The notes: generated by a model not told the origin, from the sequence alone. Shown: positions 43,438-45,781, counted from the stretch's first letter. The stretch: DNA of 64,000 nt from Candidatus Bathyarchaeota archaeon (GCA_963733055.1 CAVTBR010000003.1:640001-704000); one strand, 5' to 3'. Made by a program: numbers and translations.

Positions 43438-43560
43438 GCACCGGGCATGCGTCCCGCGACGTGTGGTAATGCGTTTTGCGCGCGTCGATTGACTTTCACG
43501 GCCAAAAGTTTAAAGGAGCCTGCTTAACGGCTTACACGAACTCCATCACAGGTCCGACTC

Positions 43561-43653
43561 TTGAGTGAAGATAATTGGGACAGCGATGAAGACGACTGGA
43601 CCGACGATGAATGGGGAGAGGACGAAGGTTGGGGAGAAGAAGAGGAGTGGTAA
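43561..43653 (+). CDS. 30-aa acidic Trp-repeat microprotein MSEDNWDSDEDDWTDDEWGEDEGWGEEEEW
   Basis: TTG start, AGGT RBS, upstream TTTAAA TATA, tandem TAATAA stop; strongly non-random composition. Confidence 0.7.
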   Translation: MSEDNWDSDEDDWTDDEWGEDEGWGEEEEW

Positions 43654-43732
43654 TAAGGCCCAGCCTCGACTTGCCTGATTTTGATTTAGGAACCTAACTA
43701 AACTGAACATTGATTCGAGAGATGAGGTAATC

Positions 43733-45511
43733 TTGTTACGCGTCGCTACACTGGACAAGGAACATTGCAAGCCAGATGACTGTGGCATACCGTGTTACCG
43801 TTTCTGCCCTGAGGTTCTGAATAGAAGATACGCTATCAAATTCATAGCAGGACAGAAGAAACCCATAATCGACGAGGACCTCTGCACCGGTTGCGGAATC
43901 TGCATCAAGAAATGCCCCTTCGACGCGATCAGCATAGTGAAGCTCCCGCAAGAGCTTGACGGGGAATGCATTCACAGTTATGGCGTAAACGAATTCAAAC
44001 TCTTCAGACTACCCGTCCCCAGCCCCGGCACACTCATCGGGCTCGTGGGAAGAAACGGCACGGGAAAGAGCACAGCCCTCCGAATATTGGGCGGAGAGAT
44101 GAAACCGAACTTCGGCACACCTGAAACCGCGACCGACTGGGATACCGTCCTAAAGAGATACCGAGGGACTCTGCTTCACGAATACTTCACCAACGTCTCC
44201 ACTGGCAGCATGAGGATCGTTCACAAACCGCAACACGTCGACAAACTCGGCGAGGTCATCAAAGGAAAGATTGGCGGGTTGTTGAATAAGGTCAATGAGC
44301 GCGGAAAGCTCGCGGAACTGATCGATGACCTCGAATTGAAACCGCTGCTCGAACAAGACGCGAAGGTGTTGAGCGGCGGTGAACTGCAAAGGGTTGCTAT
44401 CGCAGCGGCTATATCCAGAAACGCCGACGTCTACATCTTTGACGAACCATCAAGTTACCTAGACGTTTACCAACGAATTCGAGCAGCAAGGAGCATAAGG
44501 AAACTACTGGCAGAGAGAAAGACCGTACTCGTTGCCGAGCATGACTTGGCAATGCTCGACTACCTCTCGGACGAAGTCTACCTAGTTTACGGTCAGCCCG
44601 GATCATACGGCATCGTATCGCACGTTCACCCAACACGAAGCGGAATCAACGATTACCTCTCCGGATTCCTGCCCGACGAAAACATGAGGTTCAGAGATGA
44701 CCCAATCCGATTCCACGTTAGACCACCGAGGCAAATTGACTTCGAATCTCAAACCAGACTTGAATGGCCAAAGATCACGAAGAAGGTTGGGGAGTTTCAA
44801 CTCCAGGTTGACCCAGGCTACGTTGCGGGCGGCGAAATCATTGGAATACTTGGGCCCAATGGAATCGGAAAGACCACATTCATAAAAGAACTCCTCGCAT
44901 ACTACGAAAAATCAAGTCAAAATCAACTCCAAGTTAGTTACAAACCACAATACATCTCCTCAACCTACCAGGGGAACGTTCAGGAACTTCTCATGAGCGT
45001 TGTAGACGACTATTCATCCGCAATGTTCACCGACGAAGTGATCCGCCCCTTATCCATCACGAAGCTCCTCGACCGGAAGATAACCGAACTGAGCGGGGGA
45101 GAACTTCAACGGGTCGCGATTACTGCCTGCCTCGGAAAAACGGCTCAAGTCTACTTACTCGACGAACCAAGCGTGTTCCTAGATGTTGAGGAGAGGCTGA
45201 ACGTAGCTAAGGCGGTTAGGCATTTAGTTGACGCTCGACAAGCTTTCGCCTTTGTGGTTGAACACGACATTGTCACGCAAGATTTCCTTGCGGACCGTAT
45301 GATGGTTTTCAAGGGAACACCTAGCGTCGACGGCTACACTTCCAACCCGATGCCTTTGCGGGAAGCGATGAATGTCTTCCTTTCCGAAATGGGAATCACA
45401 TTTAGACGCGACCCCGACACGCAGCGTCCGCGAATAAACAAGTTGGATAGTAAGCTGGACAGGGAACAGAAGAGCTCTGGCGAATTCTACTACGTTGCCG
45501 CCAGCGAATGA
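43733..45511 (+). CDS. rli: Ribosome recycling ATPase ABCE1/RLI
   Basis: N-terminal 2x[4Fe-4S] Cys motifs, two NBDs with LSGGELQR, and ITFRRD. Confidence 0.97.
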   Translation: MLRVATLDKEHCKPDDCGIPCYRFCPEVLNRRYAIKFIAGQKKPIIDEDLCTGCGICIKKCPFDAISIVKLPQELDGECIHSYGVNEFKLFRLPVPSPGTLIGLVGRNGTGKSTALRILGGEMKPNFGTPETATDWDTVLKRYRGTLLHEYFTNVSTGSMRIVHKPQHVDKLGEVIKGKIGGLLNKVNERGKLAELIDDLELKPLLEQDAKVLSGGELQRVAIAAAISRNADVYIFDEPSSYLDVYQRIRAARSIRKLLAERKTVLVAEHDLAMLDYLSDEVYLVYGQPGSYGIVSHVHPTRSGINDYLSGFLPDENMRFRDDPIRFHVRPPRQIDFESQTRLEWPKITKKVGEFQLQVDPGYVAGGEIIGILGPNGIGKTTFIKELLAYYEKSSQNQLQVSYKPQYISSTYQGNVQELLMSVVDDYSSAMFTDEVIRPLSITKLLDRKITELSGGELQRVAITACLGKTAQVYLLDEPSVFLDVEERLNVAKAVRHLVDARQAFAFVVEHDIVTQDFLADRMMVFKGTPSVDGYTSNPMPLREAMNVFLSEMGITFRRDPDTQRPRINKLDSKLDREQKSSGEFYYVAASE

Positions 45512-45550
45512 TGTGCCACAGGTTTAACTAGCACGCCACAAACCTACCAC

Positions 45551-45781
45551 TTGGAGACCAAAATCCAAGTGACAACGAATTACTGTCTAGAATGTGGAGG
45601 AATATTGAGCTACGATAGCGCCCTGAAGCATTACACCTGCAAGAGCTGCGGACTCACTACAAGCGCACAACAACTCATGGAAGGCCGACTGAAACTGAGG
45701 GAGCGAGAATCTCCAGAGGAACAACGCAGGCGCAAACAGAATGACTACCTGAAATGGTGGCTCTCCAAGAAACCCGATTAA
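45551..45781 (+). CDS. Small zinc-ribbon protein
   Basis: CLECG...CKSCG motifs; YLKWWL C-terminus. Confidence 0.7.
   Translation: METKIQVTTNYCLECGGILSYDSALKHYTCKSCGLTTSAQQLMEGRLKLRERESPEEQRRRKQNDYLKWWLSKKPD

Follow-up and report, generated by a model that had tools for sequence, protein, structure and literature searches.

The window analysed here is a stretch of 64,000 nucleotides from a Candidatus Bathyarchaeota archaeon (GCA_963733055.1, CAVTBR010000003.1:640001-704000), and the object of interest is a short open reading frame (sORF) that precedes its gene for ABCE1, a protein conserved across archaea and eukaryotes. Judging by the pattern of variation among its relatives, this sORF is almost certainly a real gene, and it is missing from annotation. 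Its predicted product belongs to a previously unrecorded family of microproteins, about 20-45 amino acids long and made of about 62% Glu and 16% Trp, whose genes occur in Bathyarchaeia and Thermoprotei and are genetically linked to ABCE1 across both classes. In these two archaeal classes the microprotein is a candidate partner or regulator of ABCE1, which is described as an essential ribosome-recycling factor (PMC6125642), and whose ATPase tuning and release from the small subunit are presented as open questions (PMC7780240).

The sORF opens with TTG at 43561 and ends with a TAA at 43651-43653, a second TAA following directly at 43654-43656: these are the start and the TAATAA end that a preliminary description of the window had proposed. 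Its product, translated from the DNA, is MSEDNWDSDEDDWTDDEWGEDEGWGEEEEW. The peptide has 30 residues, 22 of which are D, E or W; five of them are tryptophans, as the preliminary description had counted, and 17 are acidic, one fewer than the 18 it had given. Cys is absent, and Gly occurs three times. Upstream of 43561, the frame meets an in-frame stop at 43525-43527, without any ATG, GTG or TTG in between. A six-frame scan of the 2.88-Mb genome singles out this sORF as the sole stretch of at most 25 amino acids with at least four Trp and at least 50% D/E.

ABCE1 was matched in 39 of 41 related genomes (E <= 1e-100), and 30 of the loci were taken for comparison. At each of the 30, which cover ten families of the order with ABCE1 identities down to 55%, an acidic, Trp-containing frame ends shortly 5' of ABCE1 on the same strand; 29 of the loci have a gap of 52-89 nt between the two, and the remaining locus has 194 nt. 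This conserved coding frame bears out the earlier proposal of an unannotated sORF that heads the ABCE1 unit. The checks put forward with that proposal were a syntenic sORF in relatives, which the same 30 loci provide, a synonymous bias of substitutions, and indels in multiples of three; the last two were read from 20 genus-level loci, and they come out in the same sense. The variable sites are 9 first, 6 second and 27 third codon positions, of 31. The pooled pairwise proportion of nonsynonymous differences (pN) is 0.078, against a saturated synonymous proportion (pS) of 0.773, for a pN/pS of about 0.1, and every indel is a multiple of three. The start column alternates between TTG, GTG and ATG, and start and stop codons are kept. 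Mean pairwise DNA identity over the same loci is 0.84 in the sORF, equal to the 0.84 of the first 30 nt of ABCE1, while it is 0.69 in the promoter block, 0.36 in the spacer between the two genes, and 0.28 far upstream.

One could still suppose that there is no gene here: the frame might have arisen by chance in a spacer of purine-rich (GAR)n sequence, or the DNA or RNA might itself be the element, for example as a repeat near the promoter, a structured RNA or a site bound by a protein. The sequence is indeed very short and of low complexity, and a look-up of 18 short peptides of the family in a collection of about 15 billion proteins found none of them. Such a reading does not account for variation with a period of three, for indels that occur in frame only, for the conservation of start and stop codons and the presence of Shine-Dalgarno sites, or for a frame that is kept across two classes while its flanks diverge. 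The sORF region has no Rfam match (E <= 1), and its RNA fold is not unusual: with a z-score of -0.91, it is no better than that of shuffled sequences. We consider this reading very improbable, and by the sequence evidence it seems close to refuted. The sORF is probably translated, and the best explanation is that its product is an intrinsically disordered polyanionic microprotein.

Members of the family were defined as frames of about 20-45 codons with at least 50% D/E, at least three Trp, an acidic run at the C-terminus that closes with an aromatic residue, and a ribosome-binding site of their own. The window sORF has all of these properties, and is also adjacent to ABCE1, with a gap of 79 nt. 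An alignment of 27 member proteins yields the C-terminal core EEW[G/S]EEEG[W/L/A/F]EEEEW, and five positions in it are invariant: E17, W18, E26, E28 and W30. The N-terminus often reads M-[I/V/L]-F, and the free C-terminus is usually EEEEW.

The extent of the family can be gauged with DNA patterns. The pattern [DE]4-W-stop is found in 174 of the 301 genomes of the window's class and in 172 of the 251 genomes in the class to which the Thermogladius genome belongs, counts that include chance matches: the reversed-pattern control, counted by eye, gives about 24 and about 41, respectively. Twenty sampled matches are all the ends of short acidic Trp frames, one of which has no start codon, and most of the twenty carry GGAGGTG 5-9 nt before an ATG; this full site precedes the start in other families of the class. 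The stricter pattern WEEEEW-stop, scanned in one genome per species, yields at least 120 loci, with 80 titled records. Among the 120 matches listed, 108 are mini-ORFs of the acidic Trp type. Their median length is 23 amino acids, with 62% Glu, 16% Trp and 6% Asp, a median net charge of -15 and a median D+E fraction of 0.68; 89 of them have a hydrophobic residue at positions 2-4. A Shine-Dalgarno-like 5-mer precedes the candidate start in 91 of the 108, a figure that is an upper estimate because the start was chosen using that criterion.

The titled records among the matches listed are mostly from Bathyarchaeia, along with Ignisphaera, Thermogladius, Hyperthermus, Pyrodictium, Desulfurococcaceae and Candidatus Aramenus; by record title, the carriers thus include the cultured genera Thermogladius, Pyrodictium and Ignisphaera. 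A few bacterial or very short matches are due to chance. A phylum-level genome search with the peptide profile left three known positives (G031, G039, G030) unmatched, and is therefore uninformative.

Variants of the peptide are found 5' of ABCE1 at loci of two genera, and are of two types. The first, in a genus of the window's own family (g133; L172, L173), keeps the three acidic Trp repeats and ends in ...QQCF or ...QHSF. The second, in a genus of the window's order (g9; L191, L192), is about 47 amino acids long and ends in EEEE, without a terminal aromatic residue. Another variant, at L203, ends in WEEF.

The look-up that returned none of the 18 short peptides does work, since it retrieves from the collection two zinc-ribbon proteins that share the tail. 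A profile search of 1.84 billion representatives gives six matches at E <= 0.001, and all six are over-extended calls, 41-72 amino acids long, of the genus-level sORF; none of these six is a fusion of the family to a known domain. Pfam has no match for the 30-residue peptide (E <= 0.01) or for its longer relatives (E <= 1), NCBIfam has no family match for the sORF peptide, and a profile of the 27 members matches no PDB chain at E <= 10. In the ESM Atlas, the look-alikes are weak (0.84, 0.81 and 0.78) and belong to unnamed clusters of 30-41 amino acids, which are a lead only. No literature on such a peptide was found in open-access full text and bioRxiv. The members are missing from protein databases because they are short and of low complexity, and the case illustrates how a family of widespread genes may be wholly absent from such databases.

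The features of the locus that bear on the relation between the sORF and ABCE1 are the following.

43502..43514, + strand: archaeal promoter, with a purine-rich B recognition element (BRE) CCAAAAG and a TATA box TTTAAA, about 47 nt 5' of the sORF start
43550..43553, + strand: Shine-Dalgarno-like AGGT of the sORF, 7 nt 5' of its TTG
43561..43653, + strand: acidic Trp-repeat sORF, TTG start, 30 codons and a stop, C-terminal EEEEW
43654..43732, + strand: spacer of 79 nt from the sORF to ABCE1, of unconserved sequence
43724..43728, + strand: Shine-Dalgarno site GAGGT of ABCE1, 4 nt 5' of its TTG
43733..45511, + strand: ABCE1, an ABC ATPase of 592 amino acids with twin nucleotide-binding domains (NBDs) and an N-terminal domain for two [4Fe-4S] clusters, TTG start

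The ribosome-binding AGGT, the purine-rich BRE with its TTTAAA box, and ABCE1 as the next gene downstream were all in the preliminary description, and are read at these positions. The promoter motif CCAAAAGnnTTAAA is the best-kept non-coding block in the alignment of the 20 genus-level loci, and relatives in the genus alignment have GGAG or AGGT at the site of the window's AGGT. The same alignment contains no conserved second promoter in the 79-nt spacer. The sORF and ABCE1 would be co-transcribed from the BRE/TATA promoter, with the sORF as first cistron; the internal ribosome-binding site of ABCE1 agrees with a bicistronic mRNA in which initiation at the second cistron would be independent.

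The identity of ABCE1 itself rests on two Pfam matches to ABC_tran (E = 5.2e-36) and on matches to Fer4 families; the Fer4_RLI score, 22.4 bits, is slightly below the 23-bit cut-off. Identities to the ABCE1 proteins of relatives range from 43 to 95%. Its start at 43733, a TTG in the window, is TTG in most members of the genus too, and GTG or ATG at the same column in others.

Linkage to ABCE1 was measured on the 80 listed loci with full 2-kb flanks, of which 73 are members of the family and 7 are not. Sixty of the 73 members have ABCE1 downstream of them on their own strand, with a median gap of 161 nt (range 48-1449), and in four more it is divergent: ABCE1 adjoins the sORF in 64, and is nowhere within 2 kb in the remaining nine. 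A sample drawn independently of the peptide, 30 ABCE1 loci of the GTDB order of Ca. Aramenus, in Thermoprotei, has an sORF at most 700 nt 5' of ABCE1 in 15 loci. Conservation beyond Bathyarchaeia, which had been suggested as something to look for, is thus observed together with the linkage itself. Around 19 copies that lie away from ABCE1, Pfam analysis of 44 neighbours reveals no recurrent gene family. ABCE1 is the sole recurrent neighbour of the family.

A sister genus in the window's own family (g2: G023, G372, G461, G449, G379 and 17 others) seems to lack both ABCE1 and the peptide. With the window ABCE1 as query, nothing is found at E <= 1e-15 in any of its 22 genomes, six of which are at least 90% complete. 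A profile of 44 ABCE1 sequences finds, in five genomes, nothing but single-NBD ABC ATPases, and the sole Fer4_RLI match in the genus is a Tsr3-like protein. All four of its [DE]4-W-stop matches are due to chance, and the sORF is absent too. The loss of ABCE1, a supposedly universal archaeal gene, would be remarkable if real. One genome of another genus (G024, genus g3) was considered together with this genus.

What might such a peptide do? The reading that we favour, at somewhat less than even probability, is by analogy with known ligands of ABCE1: a disordered polyanionic peptide, anchored by its tryptophans, would dock on ABCE1, or on ABCE1 bound to the 30S subunit, and modulate its cycle. 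The peptide would act in trans, as a separate gene product; its Trp side chains and acidic backbone would contact a basic or hydrophobic surface, either on ABCE1 or on the post-splitting complex that it forms with the 30S subunit; and docking would modulate ATPase activity, ribosome recruitment or release. Action in trans is suggested by stand-alone copies under selection, by the two or three copies of some genomes, by the divergent loci, and by the ribosome-binding site that ABCE1 has of its own. ABCE1, or the ribosome, is suggested as the target because ABCE1 is the sole recurrent neighbour and because there is biochemical precedent, in aP1, a stalk protein of archaea, and in eIF3j. A synthetic peptide of 20-35 residues, with its built-in Trp fluorescence, is a cheap and concrete reagent for such a question.

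The stand-alone copies deserve description. A subfamily of nine genomes (L044 and L227-L234; family f13, genus g18) has its sORF away from ABCE1, with a basic N-terminal extension of the MSRKK.PPK type followed by the acidic Trp repeats. Its variable sites fall on 7 first, 10 second and 31 third codon positions, of 39, and its flanks are unconserved. At L044 the downstream genes are convergent to the sORF; more generally, L042-L044, L047 and L049 have no co-oriented gene directly 3', the next gene being convergent. Among Bathyarchaeia genomes with several copies, G053 has three (L036-L038), one of them beside ABCE1, and G200 has three (L047-L049), none with ABCE1 within 2.3 kb downstream. The coding selection on stand-alone copies speaks for a peptide that acts in trans rather than for a leader ORF.

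A leader ORF acting in cis is the rival with which these copies must be compared. The acidic N-terminal run would destabilise the ribosome that translates it, a process known as intrinsic ribosome destabilization (IRD), or termination after Trp would be slow; the fate of the ribosomes or 30S subunits on the leader would then determine the number that arrive at the start of ABCE1, 50-300 nt downstream. The result would be a feedback between ribosome stability or recycling capacity and the synthesis of the recycling factor, with the peptide as a by-product. An IRD-type leader is known in bacteria, mgtL. The arrangement is right for such a mechanism: the sORF is upstream of ABCE1 and co-oriented with it in 30/30 loci of the order and in 60/73 listed members, gaps are short, and the whole peptide, with its median of 23 residues, would still be within the exit tunnel at termination. 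So is the composition, since conservation is limited to bulk properties, D/E and W, and six of the ten residues after Met are D/E in the window, where IRD calls for many D/E in the first ten or so residues of a short ORF. In the literature on IRD, endogenous yeast ORFs with 6-8 D/E in that stretch are reported to terminate prematurely at high rates and D/E to be avoided by proteomes over the first 30-40 residues (PMC9718836), and the 40S subunits left by IRD are reported to need recycling (PMC12673854). The likeness to such leaders comprises acidic residues in the first 30-40 codons (PMC9718836) and a position 5' of the gene for a ribosome-handling factor.

The differences from a leader are the stand-alone copies under selection, the five loci named above that have no co-oriented gene directly 3', the 4 of 73 listed members that diverge from ABCE1, and gaps as long as 1449 nt. 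ABCE1 has a Shine-Dalgarno site of its own, and a pure charge sensor would need neither the specific Trp positions nor the C-terminal aromatic residue that are kept. The fold z-score of -0.91 gives no sign of a regulated mRNA structure in the sORF region. Finally, the effect is described for bacteria and eukaryotes (PMC9718836), and we know of no report of IRD in archaea. We hold the leader ORF to be rather unlikely.

Returning to a ligand of ABCE1 that acts in trans, the precedents are two. The hydrophobic C-terminus of aP1 is reported to bind a cavity of NBD1 of ABCE1 and to activate its ATPase (PMC6125642). In yeast, density assigned to the N-terminal region of eIF3j reaches a similar place on ABCE1, which the authors call a 'multivalent interaction patch' through which the ATPase could be regulated (PMC7780240).

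Several observations weigh against this proposal. Half of the 30 ABCE1 loci in the order of Ca. Aramenus have no sORF upstream, and eight of those 15 genomes have no [DE]4-W-stop match anywhere in the class scan; in two other families of Bathyarchaeia, none of five loci has an acidic Trp frame within 600 nt 5' of ABCE1. Since lineages with ABCE1 and without the sORF exist, the peptide cannot be an obligate subunit of ABCE1. The terminal Trp is not universal, as the variants ending in F, EEEE and WEEF show. The complexity of the sequence is too low for inferring homology or a partner. Moreover, nascent chains with D/E-rich N-termini are described as aborting translation in bacteria and eukaryotes (PMC9718836); the acidic N-terminus may then make full-length translation poor, as a sensor acting in cis would have it. 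In any case, the family is a natural extreme with respect to the rule that ORFs avoid acidic N-termini.

A further point of the same kind concerns charge. In the two families of Bathyarchaeia that have no sORF, the net charge of ABCE1 is -4 to -19, against a median of +1, and columns K89, R144 and R543 are basic solely in sORF-linked ABCE1. The charge difference is not reproduced in Thermoprotei, where the medians are +6, +12 and +3.5, and where all three columns are basic in every group. Complementarity of charge between peptide and ABCE1 was consequently rejected, the signal in Bathyarchaeia being attributed to phylogenetic confounding.

The peptide may also act in trans on a target that is neither ABCE1 nor the ribosome. 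In one version it would serve ABCE1 and its two [4Fe-4S] clusters as an Fe-S delivery adaptor or an iron donor, using its C-terminal aromatic residue in the manner of Lto1; in another it would be a polyanion co-expressed with a housekeeping gene: a general chaperone, a nucleic-acid mimic, or a metal or polyamine buffer. We judge this unlikely. The E-E-W end fits the last two positions of the client motif [LIM]-[DES]-[WF]-COO- (PMC10245660), and Yae1-Lto1 are reported to bring in Rli1/ABCE1 for the insertion of Fe-S clusters (PMC4523923); at position -3, however, the peptide has E where the motif calls for L, I or M, and deca-GX3 repeats are absent. The genome has two DUF59/FeS_assembly_P proteins, but their presence is uninformative because such proteins are nearly universal (13 of 14 control genomes). 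One stand-alone copy (L057) is near an Fe-S P-loop NTPase of the NUBPL/ParA type; apart from this NTPase, no Fe-S assembly gene is found among the neighbours, and none is recurrent.

Copies of the family away from ABCE1 also favour another target, as do two zinc-ribbon proteins of other lineages that carry the WEEEEW tail, suggesting a portable docking motif. The first is a protein of 73 amino acids (L139:100-318, + strand) with a LysW-like zinc ribbon, which scores 25.9 bits with Pfam Zn_ribbon_LysW, where the cut-off is 27; the second, of 64 amino acids (L097:1827-2018, + strand), has a double zinc ribbon and is in a Hadarchaeota record. Both are present, without names, in the protein collection. 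Against a different target stands the fact that ABCE1 is the only neighbour that recurs.

The preliminary description had likened the peptide to eIF3j and Sem1/DSS1 and had also brought in Lto1; kinship with these proteins finds no support at the sequence level: there is no Pfam or NCBIfam match, no PDB profile match at E <= 10, and the defining domains are absent. Its interpretation as a whole is partly supported. Each comparison is nevertheless instructive, as the peptide may work like the acidic-aromatic tails that are used in translation.

The N-terminal region of eIF3j is acidic and has Trp motifs of the SWD/NWD type; to our knowledge, eIF3 is absent from archaea. Membership is rejected on the matches just given and on size: eIF3j has about 260 amino acids and includes a six-helix bundle, which is dimeric, as well as a C-terminal tail that enters the mRNA channel, and 30 residues leave no room for bundle or tail. 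The likeness is to the disordered region of eIF3j/Hcr1, described as reaching NBD1 and nucleotide-binding site I of 40S-bound ABCE1, where it may modulate ATPase activity (PMC7780240). The relation would be one of functional analogy at most, homology not being demonstrable.

With the aP1 tail, the peptide shares a flexible, charged character and a hydrophobic or aromatic end, which in aP1 acts on NBD1 of ABCE1 (PMC6125642). The aP1 tail belongs to a ribosomal protein and has an LxxLF end, that of this genome finishing in ...EEALAGLGALFG, whereas the microprotein is encoded by a free-standing gene, relies on Trp, is far more acidic, and has no sequence similarity to it. Mimicry of the stalk by sequence was rejected: the aP1 tail (...LAGLGALFG) is unlike the peptide, from which LxxLF(G) is absent.

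DSS1/Sem1 is small, disordered and acidic, with conserved Trp residues. It is longer, at about 70-90 amino acids, and its partners, the proteasome lid, BRCA2 and TREX-2, are absent here; with no Pfam match and no PDB profile match at E <= 10, membership was rejected. The amino-group carriers LysW and ArgW have an N-terminal zinc ribbon and an acidic C-terminal tail with Trp and an EDWGE end, whose final Glu is the site of attachment, and the LysW-like zinc ribbon of L139, described above, even carries the tail of the family. The peptide has neither Cys nor a zinc ribbon and ends in Trp rather than Glu, so that it was not assigned to this group; Pfam analysis of the proteins of the window found no LysX-type ligase near the sORF.

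Clients of the cytosolic iron-sulfur assembly (CIA) machinery are known for their C-terminal tripeptide, and we know of no CIA receptor complex (Cia1, Cia2, Met18) in archaea. The peptide resembles Lto1 and such clients in its free C-terminus, acidic then aromatic, and in a functional link to Rli1/ABCE1 (PMC10245660, PMC4523923). The tripeptide [LIM]-[DES]-[WF] was not found: positions -2 and -1 fit, position -3 is E, and variants end in C-F, S-F, E-E and E-F. Nor are the deca-GX3 repeats with which Lto1 pairs with Yae1, the three Gly forming no GX3 repeat.

A bolder version of the ligand proposal, which we regard as improbable, is that TACK archaea encode as a separate gene of 20-45 residues what is elsewhere the acidic-aromatic tail of eIF3j or of the stalk. 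This free polyGlu/Trp ligand would bind the regulatory patch of ABCE1, or its rRNA-binding face on the 30S subunit, and would control the ATPase or, once splitting is done, cause ABCE1 to be released from the small subunit. If true, this would make it the first cofactor dedicated to ABCE1 in archaea. It could also be an evolutionary precursor of the acidic-Trp motifs of eukaryotes, and it would be an unusually extreme natural sequence, which archaeal ribosomes have to translate in spite of the acidic N-terminus.

One more gene follows ABCE1 in the window.

45551..45781, + strand: CxxC...CxxC zinc-ribbon-like protein of 76 amino acids, with a basic C-terminal half that contains Trp

The preliminary description had placed a Zn-ribbon gene after ABCE1; the CxxC...CxxC gene is there, but its Pfam (zinc-ribbon) and NCBIfam matches are all below threshold. 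It is directly 3' of ABCE1 at 19 genus-level loci, with 78-95% identity, and at 2 of 10 loci from the other families of the order. Being kept mainly within the genus, it falls outside the wider association of the sORF with ABCE1; it is conceivable that its product is a basic companion to the acidic peptide.

Two small elements complete the picture of the locus. A mini-ORF of three codons, ATG AGG TAA, at 43722-43730, overlaps the Shine-Dalgarno site of ABCE1, and is unconserved in the genus alignment. Between the TATA box and the sORF start, a G-rich box at 43527-43535 reads CGGCTTAC in the window and is GGGGTTA-like in relatives, several of which have a C-rich stretch 5' of it. The box is near the expected start of transcription, and could be a start-site or operator element.

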